The translations under genes and the position numbers were made by a program. From positions 1 to 35,912 of IMG/VR virus record IMGVR_UViG_3300045988_101805: a DNA stretch of 35,912 bases, one strand, 5' to 3'. The notes under the pieces were generated by a model. It did no database searches. It had not been told where the DNA came from and saw only the letters and a program-made list of their open reading frames with translations. Positions within the stretch are counted from its first letter, which is position 1. Every line of letters begins with the position of its first letter. Positions 2,670-33,355 of this stretch are shown here, piece by piece. The DNA comes from a virus.

Positions 2670-3305
2670 ATGGATATAGGAAAAATGATTAACCAAAGAA
2701 GAACCGAATTAAAACTAACTCTTGAACAGGTAGGGCAAGTAGTTGGTGTCGGCAAGAGTACCGTCAAAAAATGGGAAGACGGTTATATATCTAATATGAG
2801 AAGAGATAAAATAGCTTTATTAGCCAAAGTCTTAAAAATGAACCCGGTTTCTTTTATTACTGGTGAATTTAAAGAAGAAGAAGACCAAGCAATCCCACTT
2901 CCGCAAACAAATGTATTTATGCGACCTGTGTATGACAGCATTTCGGCAGGGTTCGGAGCCGTTGCTCAGGATGTGCCTGTTGACTATATGCCTACATACA
3001 TCACTTGCCCCTCAGAACAGGATAAATACATATGGATAAATGTTCACGGCGATTCTATGAGCCCTCTGATTGATGACGGCAGTAAAATTCTTATTAAAAA
3101 ACAAACTTCCGTTGACAGCGGTCAGATTGCCGCAGTCCTCGTTGATGATGAAGAGGCTGTTGTTAAAAAGGTTCTTTACAGCGATAACACCGTTGAACTC
3201 CATTCAGTCAACCCCTACTATCCCCCACGAGTGTTCAAAAATAACGACATCACCCGTGTTCAAATCCTCGGTCTTGTAAAAGAAGTAAGTAAGGCTTTGC
3301 AGTAA
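2670..3305 (+). CDS. CI/LexA-like phage repressor (XRE HTH + S24 autopeptidase)
   Basis: N-terminal HTH LTLEQVGQVVGVGKSTVKKWEDG. C-terminal GDSMSP (catalytic Ser) and VVKKV (Lys), the S24 Ser-Lys dyad. Confidence 0.92.
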   Translation: MDIGKMINQRRTELKLTLEQVGQVVGVGKSTVKKWEDGYISNMRRDKIALLAKVLKMNPVSFITGEFKEEEDQAIPLPQTNVFMRPVYDSISAGFGAVAQDVPVDYMPTYITCPSEQDKYIWINVHGDSMSPLIDDGSKILIKKQTSVDSGQIAAVLVDDEEAVVKKVLYSDNTVELHSVNPYYPPRVFKNNDITRVQILGLVKEVSKALQ

Positions 3306-4265: not shown

Positions 4266-5417
4266 ATGCGTTGTAAAAAATGTAAAAAGCAAATTCCGGA
4301 CAAATCTAACTTCTGCAATTGGTGCGGAACAGCAGTTGTCAAGAAACCGCACAGAAGAGCAGACGGAAACTATGAAAAATCAATCTGCATAAACGGCAGG
4401 CGAAAAACCTTTTATGCCAAGACCGAACGAGAGCTTACAAGGAAAATTGCAATGTACAGTGCTGAGCAGGAGCGTAGTAAACGATTTGATGAGCTGGCAG
4501 AGGATTACAAGGATAATTATCTTCCTGAGCTTTCCCCTACTACACAGAAAAGTTACAATACTATTCTTGATAAGTTTACAGATGAATTTAAAGGTCGTGC
4601 GGTAAATGAGATTAAGCCGTCGGATATTCAGAAGAGTATTGACAACCTTTCAAGAACATATACTGCGAAAACAAAACGAAACTACCTTGCCACATTGTCA
4701 AGTGTATTCTCTTTCGCTGTGAGAGCCTCAGAGTACGGAATTGACACTAACCCTTGTAACTATATTAAAATTAAAGGAAAGCCGTCCACGGAGCGTAGAA
4801 TAGCCACAGATGAAGAGATTAAAATAATTTGCAGGAATACAAAAGTTCATTTTGGGTTGTTCGCATTCTTCTTGCTGACAACGGGTTGTCGCAGGTCAGA
4901 GGCTTTGGCTCTCAAATATGAGGATATAGACTTTAAGAATGATGTCATACATATAACAAAGTCGGTCACTTGGGAAAAATCAATCCCTGAATTGAAAGCT
5001 CCTAAGACAGTTAAAGGCATTCGTGATATTTTTCTTGTACCGCACTTGAAAGATGTACTGCCAAAACGAAAAAGAGGTCTTATCTTCCCTTCTTCCAAAG
5101 GTCAGTTGATGACGGAGTGTCAATATGCTACTGAATGGCATAAATATTGTGCTGAATCGGGATTAGATGATTATGCCAATGAAAACAACCTCTCTCCCTT
5201 GACTGCTCATTGCCTTAGGCACAATTATGCTACGATACTTAACGAAGCAGGCATTGACACAAAACAGGCTATGCAGTTGCTCGGTCATGCAAATGAGGCA
5301 ACCACAAAAGATGTTTATACAGCGATAACTGAAAGAAAAAATAAATCCGACAAAGTTCTTGTAACGGAAAAATTTGAAAAACGCATTCAGGAAATCACCG
5401 CAGCCGACAACCCTTGA
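4266..5417 (+). CDS. int: Tyrosine integrase with N-terminal zinc ribbon
   Basis: CKKCKK...CNWCG ribbon. Catalytic residues in GCRRSEAL (R), HCLRHNYAT (HxxR) and LLGHANEATTKDVY (H...Y). RBS AAAGGAG. Confidence 0.93.
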   Translation: MRCKKCKKQIPDKSNFCNWCGTAVVKKPHRRADGNYEKSICINGRRKTFYAKTERELTRKIAMYSAEQERSKRFDELAEDYKDNYLPELSPTTQKSYNTILDKFTDEFKGRAVNEIKPSDIQKSIDNLSRTYTAKTKRNYLATLSSVFSFAVRASEYGIDTNPCNYIKIKGKPSTERRIATDEEIKIICRNTKVHFGLFAFFLLTTGCRRSEALALKYEDIDFKNDVIHITKSVTWEKSIPELKAPKTVKGIRDIFLVPHLKDVLPKRKRGLIFPSSKGQLMTECQYATEWHKYCAESGLDDYANENNLSPLTAHCLRHNYATILNEAGIDTKQAMQLLGHANEATTKDVYTAITERKNKSDKVLVTEKFEKRIQEITAADNP

Positions 5418-17235: not shown

Positions 17236-17565
17236 TCAGATTGCAGGATAACAAAGTCCTGTTGATTTTAGCAACGCATAGAGGTCGGCAGGAATTGCCA
17301 CTCCGCTGATACACATTAAATTCCAGCTTGCACCAAATTCCATTGATGTGCCGTTGATTGAATAGCTTTTCAGATAGGAAGAAATCATATCGGCATTTTC
17401 TTCTTCAAAAGCAGTAAGTCTGCTATGCACTCTGCCGATGATTCTCTTCTGCATTTCCGAAAGTTTTTCAAAATCAATGCGGTTAAAAGTCAGAACATCA
17501 ATGTGTTCGGCAGAGATAATGCTGTTTTCATCTCCGCCCTGCTGTTCAATGTAATCGGCATACAT
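17236..17565 (-). CDS. Head-tail adaptor
   Basis: 109 aa, start overlaps the capsid gene stop (TAATG). Assigned by synteny. Confidence 0.55.
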   Translation of the reverse strand: MYADYIEQQGGDENSIISAEHIDVLTFNRIDFEKLSEMQKRIIGRVHSRLTAFEEENADMISSYLKSYSINGTSMEFGASWNLMCISGVAIPADLYALLKSTGLCYPAI

Positions 17566-18503
17566 TACGCAACCGCCGTTGTGTCAACATCGGCATAAAT
17601 GCTGTCAATTTTGCCGTCCTTGCCGTTCGGGAATACGAATGTATCGGAAAGCGAACGGTTCTGATAGAGCCAGCCGTCACCCTCTGTGTGTGAGCCGGGA
17701 GCAAAGAAGTAAATGCTTGAAATCTTCGGAACAGTCTTGCAGGTTTCACCGCAGGCAACAAGAACATTGATTTTGTGAGCACCTGTTGCAGGCTCAAAAC
17801 CGCCGTCATCTGGGTTAAAGTTGAAGTTATCGTAGAAACGCTCATCGTCAATAACCTCGATGATAGGGCAACCGTCAATCTCGGTCACTCTTGTTTCAAT
17901 GCCGATACCGCCCTCTGCAATCTGTGTAAGCTCAATCTTACGAGTGAACTCCGTTGACTGTTCAAGGCAGTCCATAATGTGAGATGTCACATAGGCAACA
18001 AGTGTGCCTCTTGCCTTGTATCTGCGGAGCTTGCCGGCAGAAAGAATTGTTTTGAGCTTTGAATAAGCGTTCTCCTTAGTCCACTCCGATGTCTTTGTTG
18101 AAGAATGATATCCGTCTGTTGCCTGCGCCTTTGCGGCAACCTTTGAGAAGAAAAGTGCGTCTGTTTCGGGAGCAACCTGTGTCTGCTCAAACACCTTTGA
18201 AATATTCTCAACCTTTGCGGTTGCGTTAGTTTCATCAACATCTGCCTTGTCAACGAGGAACTCAATATCACGGTCGTGTTCGCAGGTGAACGGAACATCG
18301 GTCTGAACATACTTGCCCTTGTTCCAACCGCCGTTGCGATTGTGGTTCTTAAAGCCTGATGTACTCATCTGTGTGAAGTGGAATGTTCTTGCGCCAACCC
18401 ACTTTACATTTGAAGTGATGAACGGTGATGTGAGTGTGCCCTGAACGAGAATTTCAAGCAGATCAGGGCTGAACTGCTCGGCATAGTTATTTGTGTTTGC
18501 CAT
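17565..18503 (-). CDS. Major capsid protein
   Basis: 312 aa after the scaffold gene. RBS AAAGGATTG. Position and composition are typical of SPP1-like capsid genes. Confidence 0.85.
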   Translation of the reverse strand: MANTNNYAEQFSPDLLEILVQGTLTSPFITSNVKWVGARTFHFTQMSTSGFKNHNRNGGWNKGKYVQTDVPFTCEHDRDIEFLVDKADVDETNATAKVENISKVFEQTQVAPETDALFFSKVAAKAQATDGYHSSTKTSEWTKENAYSKLKTILSAGKLRRYKARGTLVAYVTSHIMDCLEQSTEFTRKIELTQIAEGGIGIETRVTEIDGCPIIEVIDDERFYDNFNFNPDDGGFEPATGAHKINVLVACGETCKTVPKISSIYFFAPGSHTEGDGWLYQNRSLSDTFVFPNGKDGKIDSIYADVDTTAVA

Positions 18504-18525: not shown

Positions 18526-19116
18526 TTAAATATTAAATCTGTTCCATTTTTTGGTAGGAACATTTGCCTTTGGTTTTGTACCGTCCGATGTACCGTTGCC
18601 GTCACCGCCGATTTTCTTAACTCCTGTGCCGTTCTCGGCAGGTTTGCCCTTGAGTGCGGGGATATCGTCAAGCACCTTTTTAACAGCCTCTGTCAGCTTT
18701 TCTGCATTGACCTTGCCGTCTGTCACAGCCTTTGAAAAGTCTGCAATTTTAAGCACATACGGAACGGTTGCAATGTCAACGCCCTGTTTTACGGCTTCGA
18801 GGGTTGCCGATTGGTTGACTTCTGCCGTGAGCTTTGCGTTGTTTGCAGATTCAACTTCCGACTGCATTTTTGCAAAGTCGGGAGTGTTCTTGGCTTTCTG
18901 CTTTTTAAAAGCACCGATAGCCTCTTTCATCTCATCGGCTGACAATCCCTGCTCCTTAAAATATGACTTCAAAACGGTATCCTCTGTCACGCTCTGTTTG
19001 CCTGTAATAAGGCTTGCGAGCTTGTCGTAATCAAAGACAGGAGCGTTTCCCTGTGGAGTTCCCTGCGGTGCAGGTGTCGGTTCATTGGGGGTTGGTGTTG
19101 GATTTGGTTCTGCCAT
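18526..19116 (-). CDS. Scaffolding protein
   Basis: Pro/Thr-rich N-terminus then long charged helices (KSYFKEQGLSADEMKEAIGAFKKQKAKN...). Lies directly upstream of the capsid gene. Confidence 0.8.
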   Translation of the reverse strand: MAEPNPTPTPNEPTPAPQGTPQGNAPVFDYDKLASLITGKQSVTEDTVLKSYFKEQGLSADEMKEAIGAFKKQKAKNTPDFAKMQSEVESANNAKLTAEVNQSATLEAVKQGVDIATVPYVLKIADFSKAVTDGKVNAEKLTEAVKKVLDDIPALKGKPAENGTGVKKIGGDGNGTSDGTKPKANVPTKKWNRFNI

Positions 19117-19224: not shown

Positions 19225-19258
19225 TAAAAAAGCACCTTACATATTCGTAAAGTGCTTA
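19225..19258 (-). terminator. Strong intrinsic terminator inside the late operon
   Basis: The minus strand reads AAGCACTTTA cgaatatg TAAGGTGCTT + TTTTATT. 10-bp stem with one G-U pair. Confidence 0.7.
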
Positions 19259-19456
19259 ATCCGCTTTTTCTGTTTTTTCTGTTTTAACTGCTTTGGCTCT
19301 CGGCTTTTTGGGAGTGTCAGGCTTGACCTCTTCTGCAAAACCGCCGTCAATAAGTTCCTTTGCTCTCTGCTCGGAACATTCAAAAACTTCATTCACAGGT
19401 CGGGTTACATAACCGTTCTGCCTGTCATTAAATGCTGTTGTTACTCTGATTTTCAT
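19256..19456 (-). CDS. 66-aa hypothetical protein with basic tail
   Basis: RBS AAAGGTGGTGA. Its stop lies inside the terminator stem. Confidence 0.6.
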   Translation of the reverse strand: MKIRVTTAFNDRQNGYVTRPVNEVFECSEQRAKELIDGGFAEEVKPDTPKKPRAKAVKTEKTEKAD

Positions 19457-19593: not shown

Positions 19594-19617
19594 AACCGCC
19601 CTTTTTACGGAGCGGTT
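19594..19617 (-). terminator. Intrinsic terminator after the 53-aa gene
   Basis: The minus strand reads AACCGCTCC gtaaaaa GGGCGGTT + TTGTTAT. Confidence 0.55.
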
Positions 19618-19622
19618 AAGAT

Positions 19623-19784
19623 TTATGCTGTTTCTCTTTGTGTTCGTTTTATCTTCTCGTTTTTCACAATCACAATTTCTGATTCAAGTCTTTCTATTTC
19701 GGCATCTATTTCTTCATTTGTCATATTTTTTATTTCATCAGGAATAATAATTCTATCATCAATAAAATACTTCTTATCAGCCAT
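19623..19784 (-). CDS. 53-aa acidic protein trailing the MuF gene (candidate immunity/partner)
   Basis: Strong RBS GGGAGGTG 7 nt before ATG 19784. Overlaps the MuF stop by 8 nt. Translates MADKKYFIDDRIIIPDEIKNMTNEEIDAEIERLESEIV... Confidence 0.6.
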   Translation of the reverse strand: MADKKYFIDDRIIIPDEIKNMTNEEIDAEIERLESEIVIVKNEKIKRTQRETA

Positions 19785-21513
19785 TATAAGACACCTCCCA
19801 AAAATTAATATCAAATGACTGTGATAATTTTTTAATAGTTTTTACTTGGGCTTCCATTTCAGAAAAACCGCCATTCATATATTTTTGAATGTACAAATTA
19901 TAAAGCTTTGGGTTAATCATTTCATTGGAGTGATACCCGTAAAGTACGCCATTGTGACAAGCCACAAAACATTTAGCATATCCGTTATTAGCACAGGAAT
20001 TAAAGTCTTCAATGCTTGGTGGCATACTACTTGGGTGTGTATGAATTGTTACAACATTATTATTTGTCTGAATACATTTCTTTATTCTATCGGTATATGT
20101 TATTGTTCGTTCATCAGCACTGTCGGTTACAGATAACATAACTCTTCCTGTTTCACCGTCAATCCAATACATATCCTCAAAAGCCGTTCCGCTTCTGTGT
20201 TTTAATGCTTTTTTAGCACAATCGTAAAGTGACTTGTTGACTTCTTTATTATCAGTAGCACTATCATACTTGCGTTTATATTCGCCGCTGTCAACATAAG
20301 TTTTATTAACAAGCGTACTTTTATTGCGTCCATAACGCTGATTTTCAAGAGCCACAACATCACTTCCTAATTTCATTATAACAGTTTTTTTAGATTTTGC
20401 AACAGCTTCACTTGAAATCTTGTTGACACTCCCTGCTTTTTTCACCTTTTCTTCAAGCGTATTCGCCCTATCGTGCCACTCATCGGCTCGGGTTTGGGCA
20501 ATGCGTTTATTGTCCTCATCAAGGCTGTATTCGGCACGGCGGTCAAAGCGTTCTGCCTGACGCTGTGCATACTGCTGTTTTTCCTCAATTCCTCGCTGAC
20601 AGTCAAGCTCTTTGATTTCATCTTCAGACAACGGTGCGTCCAAATCATCAAGTTCGGGATAATATGTACTTGTGCTGTCCTTACATCTCGGATGAAACAA
20701 ACCGTTCTTGATTGCGGTTGAGAGGAGCGGATAGTTTCCGTCTGACTTTTTGCCGTTTGAATAAACATCATCAATAAACACCTTGCCGATATATTTTGCA
20801 CAATCGGGGCAACCGCCCTGTCTTGAGTTCACAACAACAAGGGATACTCCACATTCGGCTCGCTTTTCGCCCTCACCACGCAGATAGGCTCTTTTGTTGG
20901 CTGTTTTAACCGCCATATCCGCATAATCGGAGAGCGTATGCCTTGCACCGTTCTTGTATTCCACACAATTAAGACCTGCGTTGAGCATATCTTTGCAAGC
21001 TATATCAACGGCTTTTTCGTATGTAACCGCACCCGTGTTCATTGCAACCTGTGCGTTAAAAATCGCCTTGCGGTACTTGTCGTTGCTCATACGCAAAACT
21101 GCCGTTTCTGCCCTCTTTAAATCGTCTGTGGTTGATTTTATGAGTGCGTCAAGTTTACGGTCATTCACCTTAAAAAACTCGGCTGTGCTGTGTTCTGACG
21201 GCTTTTCCGGGGCTTTGAATCCGTCCTTGACAGCTTCAAGAATTTCTGCCTCCTGACTTGCGTTTCCGTCAGCTTTGGCGGTGCGAATCATCTCTTCAAC
21301 CTTGCTGTTAATGGTTTTGAAACGCTTGCCGAATTTCTTTGCGTTGTGCTTACGGTACTCTTCAAGACTTTTGAGCTGTTCTGCCTGCCATTGTGTCCAG
21401 TTGTAACCCTCTTTGGTTTCTTCGGCTCTGTGACGGCTGAAATTGCGCATCATGCTGTCGATAAGCTCATTTTCAATTCTCTCAAAAGCCTCTTTAATGT
21501 TGTAATCACTCAT
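19777..21513 (-). CDS. Minor head protein (MuF / SPP1 gp7-like) with a C-terminal JAB/MPN-like extension
   Basis: MuF-type region ending in LFHPRCKDSTSTYY, a coiled linker, then TIHTHPSSMPPSIEDF (20043..20005), which resembles the JAMM HxH-x(n)-S-xx-D motif. Confidence 0.8.
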   Translation of the reverse strand: MSDYNIKEAFERIENELIDSMMRNFSRHRAEETKEGYNWTQWQAEQLKSLEEYRKHNAKKFGKRFKTINSKVEEMIRTAKADGNASQEAEILEAVKDGFKAPEKPSEHSTAEFFKVNDRKLDALIKSTTDDLKRAETAVLRMSNDKYRKAIFNAQVAMNTGAVTYEKAVDIACKDMLNAGLNCVEYKNGARHTLSDYADMAVKTANKRAYLRGEGEKRAECGVSLVVVNSRQGGCPDCAKYIGKVFIDDVYSNGKKSDGNYPLLSTAIKNGLFHPRCKDSTSTYYPELDDLDAPLSEDEIKELDCQRGIEEKQQYAQRQAERFDRRAEYSLDEDNKRIAQTRADEWHDRANTLEEKVKKAGSVNKISSEAVAKSKKTVIMKLGSDVVALENQRYGRNKSTLVNKTYVDSGEYKRKYDSATDNKEVNKSLYDCAKKALKHRSGTAFEDMYWIDGETGRVMLSVTDSADERTITYTDRIKKCIQTNNNVVTIHTHPSSMPPSIEDFNSCANNGYAKCFVACHNGVLYGYHSNEMINPKLYNLYIQKYMNGGFSEMEAQVKTIKKLSQSFDINFWEVSYNG

Positions 21514-23080
21514 TGCTTACCCATTTGCTGTCATCGTCCTGATTTGCGATATCTTCGGGTTTATCGGGTTCATTGCCCGTGTCGGTAAGGTCCACATCGT
21601 CAAGCTCCGATTTTTCTTCCTCGCCTGCAATGCCCTGTTCTTCCTTAATTCTCTGCACCTCTTCGGCTTTCCAATCCTCCGACTTGCTGTCGCCGTAAAG
21701 CTCGTCAACCGAGGTTTCAACTGACATCAAACCGCCCTGTCTTGCTTTTGACACGGTTTCAACCTGACTTTCAAAGCTCGGATTTGCATATTCGCCGAAG
21801 TTTACGGATACTTCCAAGCCCTCAACAATACCCTTGCCGTTAAGTTCACCGTCTGCATTGAGTACAACTGCAACAAGGCTTTGAAGTGCGTTCTGCGTAA
21901 TTTTCACAAGGTTCTGCCTTGTGTAAAGGGTTGTCTTTTCCTTTTCACGCTGAGCGTCTGCATTATCAAGCTTCTTCGTATCAATACCGAGAGTTGACGG
22001 CGATATAATACCCTGCAAACAGAGGTCGAGGGCAGTAATGTATGAACTCAAATAGCTTTCGTGCTGAATCTGCGGACTTTCGGTGTAAATCCTGTTGCCG
22101 TTGCCGTTTTCAGACATATCGTTGCCCACGGTGATAAATCGGTTGTCAAACGGATTTGGCGATATCGGCTGACAGGTTTCGGGATTTCTCGGAACAAGGC
22201 AATCAGGCACATACTGCTTTGTTCGGCAGGCTCTGAGTGCGTCCATCCACTGTGACCACACTTCATCAAGGCTGTCGAAAGCGTCTGTTTTTATGCCAAT
22301 AATGCCCGCACCTCTGCCCTTGTGGCACGATTTGCCGTAAAGGACAGGTACAGCCCACATATATGATTCGTCAAATGTAACGCCCTTTGAATCAATCCAC
22401 GAAAGAGCGTCAACCGTGTGCAGGTCAATCTCTTTGCCGTTGTCATCATACAAAGCATAGTGAATATAGCCGTAACCGTATGTTTCTTCAAAACGATAAC
22501 GGCGGTGTTTTTGCGTGTAATCGGTGTAAAACTTAACCTCTCGGATTCTGCCGCGCACATATGTAAAGTCGATGTTTTCGGCAGGATACCATTCAACAAT
22601 CGGAACATCTGATACAGCCGTGTCAAAGCTGACCTTAAAAGCACCGTCACCGACAACACATAGGTCACGGAGCATTTGCTTAACCGTGTCGGATAGCTTG
22701 TTCTGCTTTTCAATGTCTTCCCAACGCTCTGCATAAGCGGTTGAATTTTTACTTGTAACATCTGTGCCGTTGTAGTCGGCAATTACAATATTCACAAGCG
22801 TTTCGCAGATGAGTGCCGGCAGGCCCGTGTGTATTTTACGGATTTCAAGCCCCTTTGTGCTTTTTGCCGCCCAAAACATAGTTTTGTTTGTATCAATCTG
22901 CCTGTACAGCTCCGCAAGCTGTCTGCTGTTGCCCCAATACCAAATGCGATTGATAAAGCACTCGGTCAGATGATTGCTTGTTTCGGTGACGGTAATTGTT
23001 TTGTCGCTTGCAGGAGTAATCTGCAAAAAGTTTTTAATTCCCGATCTGATAGATTCAGCCATTCTGTTAATCAGCCCCAT
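21506..23080 (-). CDS. Portal protein (SPP1 gp6-like)
   Basis: 524 aa between TerL and MuF, with an acidic C-terminus. Confidence 0.85.
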   Translation of the reverse strand: MGLINRMAESIRSGIKNFLQITPASDKTITVTETSNHLTECFINRIWYWGNSRQLAELYRQIDTNKTMFWAAKSTKGLEIRKIHTGLPALICETLVNIVIADYNGTDVTSKNSTAYAERWEDIEKQNKLSDTVKQMLRDLCVVGDGAFKVSFDTAVSDVPIVEWYPAENIDFTYVRGRIREVKFYTDYTQKHRRYRFEETYGYGYIHYALYDDNGKEIDLHTVDALSWIDSKGVTFDESYMWAVPVLYGKSCHKGRGAGIIGIKTDAFDSLDEVWSQWMDALRACRTKQYVPDCLVPRNPETCQPISPNPFDNRFITVGNDMSENGNGNRIYTESPQIQHESYLSSYITALDLCLQGIISPSTLGIDTKKLDNADAQREKEKTTLYTRQNLVKITQNALQSLVAVVLNADGELNGKGIVEGLEVSVNFGEYANPSFESQVETVSKARQGGLMSVETSVDELYGDSKSEDWKAEEVQRIKEEQGIAGEEEKSELDDVDLTDTGNEPDKPEDIANQDDDSKWVSNE

Positions 23081-31991: not shown

Positions 31992-33080
31992 TTAATATTT
32001 AACATTGATATAATCCAACACCCTTGCCCAGCCGTATCTTTCGCCTGTTTTATCATCTATACAGCAGTTATACATCCAATAATCCCACTCTTTAGGATTT
32101 CGCTCTTTGAGTAAATCAAATCTATGAGGACGCTTTTCCAAGTGCAAACCGAATCCGCACATTGAACAACCTGTTCTTTGAGCCTTGGTTGTGTACAAAG
32201 TACCATCTTCTTGCCTCTCGATTTTTCCGTATATTTCGGGAACAGGAACATTTAAATCAAGAGCAAGTTGCAAAATATCTTGTCTGTTAAAAATCGCAAA
32301 CGGTGCTGATCTGATTGTAGATTTACCGAAATAATTACAACCATTTATCATTAAGGATTTAGCTCTTCTTCCACCTTCGGAAGCCATCAAGCCAAGATAA
32401 GGCACGCTGTTATGTTCTTTCGCCCAAGTGTCGCAAGGCTTTTCTTTTAGATAATAACAGCATTTTGATGACACTTTGAAATTTGGAATTTGGTAATTTG
32501 TACCCTCTTCATCATTCGCATAACCGCCGAACTTTTCAAGCCACTTTTGCGACATTTTCATACGACTGTTTTTTTGATAACCGCCATAGGCTCCTGTTTC
32601 GCCTGTCACAATAGCATGTCGAACAGTTTTGTTTTTTTCGGTCGGATTTGCAAGTAATTCAATCTTGGCGGCAATTTCTTTTGATAAGACAGGAAATCCA
32701 AACTCTTGAATTATATCCTGCTTAGTCCAGCGGTGTTCTTTTCCTGCACCGTCAACATACCGAACTGATGGCTTTAACCTTTCAATTCCGAGCTCTTTAT
32801 GTATTTTTTGAATGCTTGAATCTTCAAGATAAGAAACGCTGATTCCTGGGGCATGGATTCCGATTGACTTTAAAAAGATAAATAATGTAATGCTATCAAG
32901 ACCGCCGACCGAAACGTGATAGTTTAATTCTCGTTTATCGCATTCTTCGGCAAATTCTCTCGCTCTGATAGTTGCATACTTAACTTTAAATTCATAATCT
33001 TGTTTTTGCTTAACAATGAAATCAGAGATTTTTCTCTGTCCGTCAATTCTTTCCATTCGTTCAAAAACATTTTCTTTCAT
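31992..33080 (-). CDS. PAPS-reductase-family PP-loop enzyme (DndC/IbrA-like)
   Basis: PP-loop SVGGLDS, C-terminal cysteines CSMCGFG and CC. ATG 33080 after GGGGGTGGAGA. Confidence 0.8.
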   Translation of the reverse strand: MKENVFERMERIDGQRKISDFIVKQKQDYEFKVKYATIRAREFAEECDKRELNYHVSVGGLDSITLFIFLKSIGIHAPGISVSYLEDSSIQKIHKELGIERLKPSVRYVDGAGKEHRWTKQDIIQEFGFPVLSKEIAAKIELLANPTEKNKTVRHAIVTGETGAYGGYQKNSRMKMSQKWLEKFGGYANDEEGTNYQIPNFKVSSKCCYYLKEKPCDTWAKEHNSVPYLGLMASEGGRRAKSLMINGCNYFGKSTIRSAPFAIFNRQDILQLALDLNVPVPEIYGKIERQEDGTLYTTKAQRTGCSMCGFGLHLEKRPHRFDLLKERNPKEWDYWMYNCCIDDKTGERYGWARVLDYINVKY

Positions 33081-33355
33081 TTCTCCACCCCCACACATTC
33101 AAAGCCGATTGTTTCGGGTTCTGATGATTCATAAGCTTTGAGCTTGCGGGTAAGCTCTGCGTTTTCAAGGGTAAGTTCGTTTATAACCCTTTCACAGGTG
33201 TTTGCTTTCTTTTTCCAAAGTTCGTTGTTACTGTTCAGAGCGTTACATTTAGCTGTAAGTTCTTCAATAGTCTTGTTGCGTCGGTCAATTGTTTCGATTC
33301 GATTTTCGAGTTCTAAACGCAATGACCTGCGTGTTCTGAAATCTTTAAATGCCAT
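33077..33355 (-). CDS. Coiled-coil 92-aa protein
   Basis: Heptad-like ELENRIETIDRRNKTIEELTAKCNAL.... RBS AAAGGAGC. Confidence 0.65.
   Translation of the reverse strand: MAFKDFRTRRSLRLELENRIETIDRRNKTIEELTAKCNALNSNNELWKKKANTCERVINELTLENAELTRKLKAYESSEPETIGFECVGVEK

Follow-up and report, generated by a model that had tools for sequence, protein, structure and literature searches.

How does a phage head gene come to end in an enzyme-like domain with a tiny overlapping gene behind it, and when would the two products be made? The question is raised by a stretch of viral DNA of 35,912 nucleotides (nt), the IMG/VR record IMGVR_UViG_3300045988_101805 (positions 1 to 35,912; hereafter the window). Here, an open reading frame (ORF) of 578 amino acids (aa) joins the N-terminal domain of a MuF-type minor head protein to a C-terminal JAB/MPN-like module, and a 53-aa gene follows. 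We consider it probable, at roughly 60%, that the module and the small gene form a capsid-delivered effector and its neutralising partner, of the MuF polymorphic-toxin kind, carried as a moron-like cassette with two modes of expression. Within this composite reading the architecture is close to certain; the odds are roughly even between a toxin/immunity function on the one hand and, on the other, a non-toxic RadC-like establishment factor or a toxin-antitoxin module acting purely in the lysogen. The JAB gene and its partner are predicted to be an autonomous mobile transcription unit consisting of a sigma-A promoter, a Shine-Dalgarno (SD) motif, a GTG or ATG start, the JAB gene, the small gene and a terminator. 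In phage copies this unit appears to be joined in frame to the 3' end of a MuF or portal gene, with its promoter, ribosome-binding site (RBS) and start codon also coding for the linker. The presence of these three signals in frame at a domain junction is the most unusual feature of the locus, and one that an earlier interpretation made from the letters alone (the sequence-only reading) had not mentioned.

The carrier portion of the protein is readily assigned. Residues 6-327 match Phage_min_cap2 (PF06152) with an E-value (E) of 1.1e-35 and 123.7 bits against a cut-off of 26.3, and the head ORF matches the minor head protein family phrog_581 (E 2.8e-71). These profile matches, the first of them above the curated threshold, place the 578-aa protein in the MuF superfamily (Phage_min_cap2/MuF2) and bear out the MuF-type N-terminus that the sequence-only reading had claimed. 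The peptide LFHPRCKDS begins at residue 272. The C-terminal module is 100% identical to a copy in the genome of Ruminococcus bromii ATCC 27255, and it is also 100% identical in 12 IMG/VR viral contigs. The coordinates of the carrier, junction, module and partner are collected in Table 1.

Table 1. Annotated and predicted features of the head gene, its junction and the downstream cassette (window coordinates).
Feature	Position	Strand	Basis or remark
MuF-type minor head protein with C-terminal JAB-like module, 578 aa	19777..21513	(-)	ORF list, stop codon included
Phage_min_cap2 (MuF2) head-morphogenesis domain, residues 6-327	20533..21498	(-)	PF06152, phrog_581
Predicted in-frame sigma-A-type promoter at module junction	20375..20402	(-)	consensus scan, 10/12 matches with TG
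Predicted -35, TTGCAA	20402-20397	(-)	16-nt spacer to -10
Predicted TG extension	20383-20382	(-)	part of window promoter
Predicted -10, TATAAT	20380-20375	(-)	part of window promoter
Predicted internal Shine-Dalgarno, AGGAAGTG	20368-20361	(-)	SD-like motif 5' of Val387 GTG
GTG codon, Val387	20355-20353	(-)	position where free-standing homologues begin (M)ALENQRYGRNK
JAB/MPN-fold (RadC-like) module, residues 387-578	19780..20355	(-)	AlphaFold2, Foldseek, BFVD; C-terminus of the fusion and predicted free 192-aa product
Metal-site motif HTHPSSMPPSIED (H491, H493, S500, D503)	20005..20043	(-)	alignments A1 and A2
General-base candidate E446 (in TAFEDMY)	20178-20176	(-)	conserved upstream Glu
53-aa putative neutralising/immunity partner gene	19623..19784	(-)	SD GGGAGGTG at 19799-19792; 8-nt overlap with upstream stop
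Intrinsic-terminator-like hairpin AACCGCTCCGTAAAAAGGGCGGTT with T-rich tail, closing the cassette	19594..19617	(-)	sequence prediction

The predicted promoter, SD motif and start codon of the window span a junction of about 60 nt that lies in frame within the head gene. In the window alone, the numbers of promoter-like and terminator-like sites do not exceed shuffle expectation; the significance of the junction derives from its pattern across loci and not from these counts. For this comparison 78 non-redundant loci were divided into three coding classes and scored by the number of matches, out of 12, to the two promoter hexamers. About 75 of the 78 carry a near-consensus TTGACA-N16/17-TGnTATAAT followed by an SD motif and GTG/ATG just upstream of the module, the order being TTGACA, a 16-17-nt spacer ending in TGn, TATAAT, AGGAAGTGA, 5-6 nt, and GTG or ATG. 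The mean score is 11.4/12 where in-frame stops make the junction non-coding (15 loci), 11.65/12 where it has 25-109 open codons (34 loci), and 11.41/12 in the true fusions, which have 110 or more codons upstream (29 loci, 20 of them perfect at 12/12 and 27 with the TG). GTG, ATG or TTG occupies the start-codon position in 74/78 loci, and an SD-like motif lies upstream of it in 67/78. The same arrangement recurs in relatives of only 32-35% identity (L134/135, L137/139/160/171).

An alternative is that the junction is not a promoter at all, and is instead kept either as a linker peptide or as a site where cassettes are swapped by recombination, comparable to CdiA VENN or the boundary of the Rhs core. 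Conserved junctions are indeed a feature of polymorphic toxin systems (PMC3482391), and the junction here is the boundary at which differing cargo modules attach. However, the hexamers are conserved equally well in the non-coding loci, and conservation is focused on the -35, the TG and the -10, while the spacer and the DNA further upstream vary. Of the 45 isoleucine codons that fused genes have within the promoter span, 43 are ATA, compared with 38% ATA elsewhere in those ORFs. The -10 reads G-I-I (GGT ATA ATA) in most genes and Y-N (TAT AAT) in a few, for example L125, L064 and L035, so that the cassette seems to have been attached in each of the two frames in which the TAA of TATAAT is not a stop. 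Because of the ATA bias and the reading of the -10 in two frames, we place the constraint on the DNA and not on a linker peptide. Further, an SD motif and a start codon follow at the correct distance, and the conserved core of about 40 nt is short for homologous recombination, though the two roles are compatible. We regard a junction without promoter function as very unlikely.

The module beyond the junction was examined by structure prediction, fold comparison and profile searches. We assign it to the JAB fold because every test agrees in direction, although none is decisive alone. A search with residues 383-578 retrieved 455 homologues, two of which bear the JGI name 'proteasome lid subunit RPN8/RPN11', and the family amounts to 1249 clusters at 50% identity (E<=1e-3), many of them proteins of 400-610 aa with the domain at the C-terminus. 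An AlphaFold2 (AF2) model of the domain has a predicted local distance difference test score (pLDDT) of 86.3 and a predicted template modelling (TM) score of 0.83, and shows helical additions at both ends, an N-terminal segment of about 60 residues and a C-terminal hairpin. In a Foldseek comparison with the PDB, ranks 1-5, 7, 8 and 10 are held by BRCC36, PfJAMM1 (with and without SAMP2), RadC 2qlc and AF2198, with probabilities of up to 0.96. Cytidine deaminases, which have the fold in common, rank after the JAB matches; a cytidine-deaminase reading was rejected, since the module has no H/CxE...PCxxC motif and the JAB residues are the ones conserved. The best structural matches in BFVD are the C-termini of gut siphovirus 'minor capsid proteins' of 570-633 aa (E 7e-20, TM 0.87).

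Two alignments, A1 with 34 close homologues and A2 with 30 diverse homologues (27-63% identical to the window domain), show E64, H109, H111 and D121 (domain numbering) to be invariant and S118 to be present in at least 90% of members; H138, G140, Y130 and Y145 are also conserved. The JAMM residue set is complete in the window domain (E446, H491, H493, S500, D503), and we take the motif to be beyond chance because the catalytic residues are kept in homologues of such low identity. The family-wide spacing in A2 is HxH-x6-S-xx-D, in contrast to the canonical JAMM HxH-x7-S-xx-D. The top PDB match of the A2 profile is RadC 2qlc (E 0.015), with exactly one gap in the alignment across the site (itiHnHPes.mpPSieD / ILVHNHPSGdVQPSNAD). 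RadC was reached with this broader profile only: a single-sequence PDB search with the domain gave no match, and the A1 close-family profile gave NURS pir2 alone, which is spurious. Against Pfam, the window domain scores 12.9 bits with Prok-JAB (threshold 25), which is matched by 20/34 A1 members (best E 0.0043) and 6/30 A2 members, while RadC (PF04002) is matched by 14/30 A2 members (best E 0.0039). Isolated, insignificant matches were to Toxin-JAB1 (E 0.041, 1/30) and DUF4329 (E 0.023, 1/34), and no curated toxin domain was matched significantly by the module.

On the alignments and the model, the module is a divergent, uncurated branch of RadC-like JAB folds with a metal site that appears intact, and is predicted to be a metallohydrolase. 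The sequence-only reading had anticipated much of this, having proposed a JAB/MPN-like motif, placed HTHPSSMPPSIED at 20043..20005, judged the site one residue shorter than that of RadC, and picked out a possible upstream Glu in AFEDMYWID. The motif lies at those positions, the missing residue is the single gap against 2qlc, and the Glu is E446, an invariant position among homologues. The Foldseek and homologue-conservation checks that it had suggested retrieved the JAB fold and found the motif residues conserved, alongside the RadC match of the A2 profile and the recurrent sub-threshold Pfam matches. The module opens with the peptide ALE(N/Y)QRYGRNK (residues 387-400, 20355-20314), which does not vary within the close subfamily. 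The model shows it disordered (pLDDT <50), and relatives at 31-41% identity lack it; the idea of a cleavage or targeting site was dropped on account of this distant non-conservation and low model confidence.

The intact JAMM residues and the presence of deubiquitinases such as BRCC36 and SAMP2-bound PfJAMM1 among the top structural matches raise the possibility of an injected anti-defence isopeptidase, that is, a virion-delivered JAB that strips ubiquitin-like conjugates laid down by Cap2 of CBASS (cyclic-oligonucleotide-based anti-phage signalling systems) or by Bil-type systems, and is not a toxin. Delivery on MuF or portal fusions would suit such an early-acting effector (PMC5512222). By sequence and profile, however, the affinity of the module is to RadC and not to Cap3- or Rpn11-type JABs, and it has been argued that the groove for the tail of a ubiquitin-like protein is missing from RadC-type and toxin JABs (PMC3482391, PMC5512222). 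No ubiquitin-like protein, E1 or E2 occurs among the precomputed Pfam neighbours, which cover few loci and were not a systematic search, and PADLOC returned no match. The junction is moreover shared with a bona fide toxin domain, Tox-MPTase4, and a coupled partner of about 50 aa and free-standing chromosomal copies, both described below, would be unexpected for a harmless counter-defence enzyme. An anti-ubiquitin or anti-CBASS role is distinctly unlikely and is not favoured here, as it is without specific support and leaves the obligate partner and the chromosomal copies unexplained.

The partner gene is tightly coupled to the module. Its ATG sits inside ATGGCTGA, giving an 8-nt overlap with the TGA of the head gene (19779-19777), and GGGAGGTG lies 7 nt 5' of the ATG. 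The sequence-only reading had described a 53-aa ORF with an RBS, this overlap and a following terminator; its coordinates hold, and the gene proves to be widely conserved. Among 86 loci taken from genomes and assemblies, many of them metagenome-assembled, a local hidden Markov model (HMM) of the small proteins finds a homologue directly 3' of the JAB module in 84. The two loci without an HMM match are L079, which has a divergent small ORF and a hairpin, and L063, in which the JAB gene is frameshifted and the locus ends soon after. The 75 distinct partner sequences are 33-62 aa long, begin between -26 and +6 nt relative to the preceding stop codon, and have the consensus M..KEYF.DDRVIIP..IK.MT.EE..AEI.RLE.EA; the N-terminal half is acidic and the C-terminal half basic. 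Most relatives of only 31-35% identity, too, have a small charged ORF behind them. A hairpin (free energy at or below -6 kcal/mol, with a T-run) occurs within 80 nt of the partner stop in 63/78 loci, with differing stem sequences. The JAB domain and the small gene thus appear to be a near-obligate pair, the latter a genuine conserved partner.

What the partner might be is narrowed by two rejected candidates, a ubiquitin-like substrate and a ribbon-helix-helix antitoxin: the protein is too short, does not end in Gly-Gly, varies at its C-terminus and has an acidic predicted first strand. No DNA-binding signature was found in the small protein, and no natural fusion of the JAB module with its partner was found. 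Searches of NCBIfam and PADLOC gave no meaningful match for the fusion, the free homologues or the small protein. The tightly coupled two-gene arrangement is the one trait of type II toxin-antitoxin systems that is seen. Many partners end in [KR]ETA or KKTA (...RTQRETA in the window, 19623-19640), the rest of the C-terminal tail being variable, and this end could be a degradation or recognition tag.

The module occurs on several carriers and also without any. It is fused to Phage_Mu_F (PF04233) in six loci (L008, L016, L032, L043, L054, L070), to Phage_min_cap2 (PF06152) in L009, L044 and the window, and to a Phage_portal protein (PF04860) in L057. On viral contigs, nearly every copy is a fusion within an ORF of 500-650 aa. 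Among the genome copies, about half stand alone as proteins of 188-200 aa beginning MALENQRYGRNK; they lie on Oscillospiraceae chromosomes, some among genes for MntP and ABC transporters, FtsW, pyruvate-ferredoxin oxidoreductase and FtsA. Other copies occur in prophage remnants beside a portal-Ntox50 fusion, and several genomes hold more than one copy. Tandem cassettes are found in L028 (2600-4900) and L064 (730-1100), frameshifted JAB genes with one or two partners retained in L063 (6013-6639) and L072 (2445-3350), and an orphan partner gene with no adjoining JAB gene at L034:7068-7202. By analogy, the module is a mobile cargo that seems to behave like toxin/immunity or toxin/antitoxin cassettes. 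A role as a head-maturation protease was rejected, as free-standing copies lie between housekeeping genes and always have the partner alongside. In one such remnant (L087:7133-8216; also L088 and L089), a 291-aa portal fragment-Ntox50 protein (PF04860 and PF15542) is followed by a 65-aa gene and adjoins a Peptidase_S78 gene and a free-standing JAB/partner cassette, placing two capsid-carrier cargo systems on one element.

The same distribution could be taken to mean that the cassette is mainly a toxin-antitoxin or abortive-infection 'moron' expressed in the lysogen, and that its fusion to head genes is a by-product of insertion with no role in delivery. The unit is self-contained, with promoter, SD motif, start and terminator; it stands free at unrelated chromosomal sites, sometimes several to a genome, and the decay pattern retains the small gene. 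Against this, the frame is open across the junction in 29 of the 78 genome loci and in nearly all viral contigs, and the fusion has arisen independently with three capsid-interior families (PF04233, PF06152 and portal). The maintenance of an open frame and the three carrier families argue that the fusion itself is selected, and other cargo modules occupy the identical fusion point. Insertion without delivery is therefore an unlikely account, though the least so of the alternatives considered here.

These other modules extend the pattern beyond the JAB family. The TTGACA-N17-TGnTATAAT-SD junction precedes a Tox-MPTase4 metallopeptidase toxin at L067:6027-6505 (PF15640, 27.1 bits against 25), two different HxHP..S..D JAB-like modules on MuF remnants at L087:6246-6761 and L027:8861-9271, an 82-aa module fused to portal at L034:11155-11471, and a 160-aa module without a Pfam match at L053:3491-4035. 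In these Clostridia, the junction appears to mark the border between capsid carriers and interchangeable cargo cassettes.

The company of toxins also bears on the possibility that the cargo is a non-toxic, RadC-like nucleic-acid or nucleoprotein factor that aids the incoming phage DNA, with the small protein as regulator or cofactor. RadC is the closest solved and curated relative of the module, and RadC JABs recur in polyvalent proteins, which enter the cell early from phages and conjugative elements (PMC5512222). Yet the junction also precedes the bona fide toxin Tox-MPTase4, the neighbours in prophage remnants include the portal-Ntox50 fusion, and the orphan partners and partner-retaining JAB pseudogenes resemble toxin/immunity decay; RadC itself has no established function. 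We consider a purely helpful factor of this sort quite unlikely.

We propose instead that the cassette is probably made in two forms, one a fusion packaged in the virion and the other a free pair of proteins, as the arrangement of signals in the DNA suggests. During lytic growth, the late transcript would give the 578-aa fusion, whose MuF part would carry the enzyme into the procapsid. The fusion would then be ejected into the next host with the DNA, as MuF proteins are thought to behave on the SPP1 gp7 model; packaging and ejection have been proposed for MuF cargo (PMC3482391, PMC5512222, PMC5576092). In the producing cell, the coupled small protein would neutralise the enzyme. In lysogens, and from free-standing copies, the internal promoter would drive a short transcript, about 770 nt long (roughly 20368 to 19594), encoding the free 192-aa JAB protein and the partner, providing standing immunity and/or a toxin-antitoxin-like means of addiction or exclusion. 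The frequent GTG start of the enzyme, set against the strong SD-ATG of the window's partner, would favour an excess of partner. The substrate of the enzyme may be a peptide or isopeptide, or a nucleic acid. That one junction of about 60 nt yields, during lytic growth, a fusion delivered by the capsid and, in the lysogen, the enzyme and its inhibitor as free proteins, as a general route in gut Clostridia prophages is a tentative extension, to which we give somewhat less than an even chance.

Several observations weigh against the delivered effector and partner. Promoter, RBS and terminator are predictions from the DNA. The Foldseek PDB matches have weak E-values (0.009-0.4), every match to the curated JAB-clan models (PF01398, PF14464, PF04002) is below threshold, and no known fold or family was found for the partner protein. 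The position of the promoter upstream of the enzyme means that the supposed toxin would be co-expressed in lysogens, which is odd for a device serving purely to express immunity; such co-expression fits a toxin-antitoxin-like pair. The junction promoter is, moreover, absent from some branches of the family, including the phage AC844P2 and several viral contigs, and is therefore not essential to the MuF-JAB design. AC844P2 (L092, OP172636.1: 34444-36207; host Anaerostipes caccae) is one of three cultured Anaerostipes phages, AC844P1-3, that encode a 538-aa MuF-JAB homologue (42% identity) followed by a 45-aa gene, all annotated as hypothetical. Having no junction promoter, these phages could be used for experiments and would serve as a naturally 'promoter-less' control.

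Temperate phages are already known to encode MuF polymorphic toxins that have small immunity ORFs downstream (Jamet et al. 2017, PMC5576092), although only Apk2 and Bxa have been characterised (PMC11699363); both papers offer precedent for small immunity ORFs behind MuF toxins. The locus described here resembles these systems in its MuF-superfamily N-terminus, the position of the gene right after portal, the temperate phage, the variable C-terminal domain, here predicted to be enzymatic, the small ORF (<150 aa) directly downstream, and the presence of the cargo on other carriers too. It differs in the JAB fold of the cargo, the partner of about 50 aa and the predicted promoter, RBS and start at the junction, signals that neither PMC5576092 nor PMC11699363 mentions. 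The sequence-only reading had named no JAB cargo among MuF toxins, and in the MuF-toxin literature covered here (PMC5576092, PMC11699363, PMC3482391), including the toxin lists and text of the first two, none was found. Promoters and orphan cassettes likewise go unmentioned in PMC5576092 and the parts of its supplements covered here. A literature search of incomplete coverage found neither JAB cargo on MuF nor internal promoters in MuF toxin genes.

Among JAB proteins, the RadC-like members (PF04002; 2qlc) are closest, sharing the best PDB profile match across the HNHP..PS..D site and an association with phages and early-delivered proteins; some polyvalent proteins contain RadC JAB modules (Iyer et al. 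2017, PMC5512222). Unlike them, the module scores below threshold, has a His-Ser spacing one residue shorter and extra helices, and comes with a dedicated partner gene. Tox-JAB-1 and Tox-JAB-2 toxin domains are known on Rhs, type VI and type VII secretion system carriers, and MuF is not listed among these (2012, PMC3482391). They too have a JAB fold with E, H[ST]H, S and D, and are C-terminal toxin modules with immunity genes downstream; here, however, only the isolated insignificant matches were obtained, and the Tox-JAB immunity families (Imm65, Imm-NTF2-2) differ. CBASS Cap3 and the JAMM deubiquitinases (Rpn11, BRCC36, PfJAMM1) share the fold and the catalytic residue set and supply top structural matches, but show no significant sequence similarity and differ in spacing, and among the Pfam-annotated neighbours of the few loci covered here there is no ubiquitin-like protein, E1 or E2.

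In its organisation the cassette recalls two other kinds of element. Phage morons are promoter-gene-terminator units in the late operons of lambdoid phages such as HK97 and lambda. Like them, the cassette has its own promoter and terminator (here by sequence only) inside a late structural operon, and expression in the lysogen is expected; unlike them, it continues the reading frame of the structural gene in front of it, which means that promoter and RBS would be translated as well and that the product would also exist as part of a structural protein. Orphan CdiA-CT and Rhs-CT cassettes likewise comprise free or tandem toxin-plus-immunity units, arrays and orphan immunity genes, with the junction conserved with the full-length carrier. 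Their junction is a VENN-type peptide, in contrast to the consensus promoter, SD motif and start seen here, and the carriers here are capsid proteins.

The cargo family with its partner of about 50 aa is undescribed, and a coding junction that doubles as promoter, RBS and start is new as far as we have found. To our knowledge, no explanation has been given of how a lysogen, its late operon being silent, continues to express the immunity that matches its cargo. The locus offers a concrete answer in the form of a predicted internal consensus promoter, RBS and start within a head gene at the cargo boundary, an arrangement kept in about 75 independent loci and shared by cargo of several kinds. If correct, this would be a previously undescribed way of keeping an immunity or addiction/exclusion module on for injected cargo. 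The RadC-like JAB and its partner would then be a new effector/immunity class and could give a RadC-type JAB an assayable activity, and this large family gives a handle on the long-unknown biochemistry of such proteins. The family is abundant in Oscillospiraceae of the human and animal gut, including the keystone starch degrader Ruminococcus bromii.

The surroundings of the head gene are those of a structural operon. The portal gene (phrog_533, 21506-23080) lies directly upstream and overlaps the start of the 578-aa ORF, TerS and TerL lie upstream of the portal and head genes, and the scaffold (18526-19116) and then the major head gene (17565-18503) follow downstream. With an integrase (4266-5417; phrog_1, E 1.8e-69), a CI-like repressor (2670-3305; phrog_4) and genes for endolysin, tape measure protein, TerS/TerL and a DnaB-like helicase, the window has the predicted gene content of a temperate siphovirus prophage. 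The interval 19230-19456 (minus strand), which separates the cassette from the scaffold gene, holds a 66-aa gene (DUF7302-like, phrog_2616) and, after it, a 12-pair terminator-like hairpin (19257-19230); a promoter-like site lies upstream of the gene (19484-19455), which may be another small insert in the head operon. In the early/replication region, a gene at 31992-33098 (minus strand) encodes a 368-aa protein resembling phosphoadenosine phosphosulfate reductase (phrog_424), a family in the category 'moron, auxiliary metabolic gene and host takeover'.

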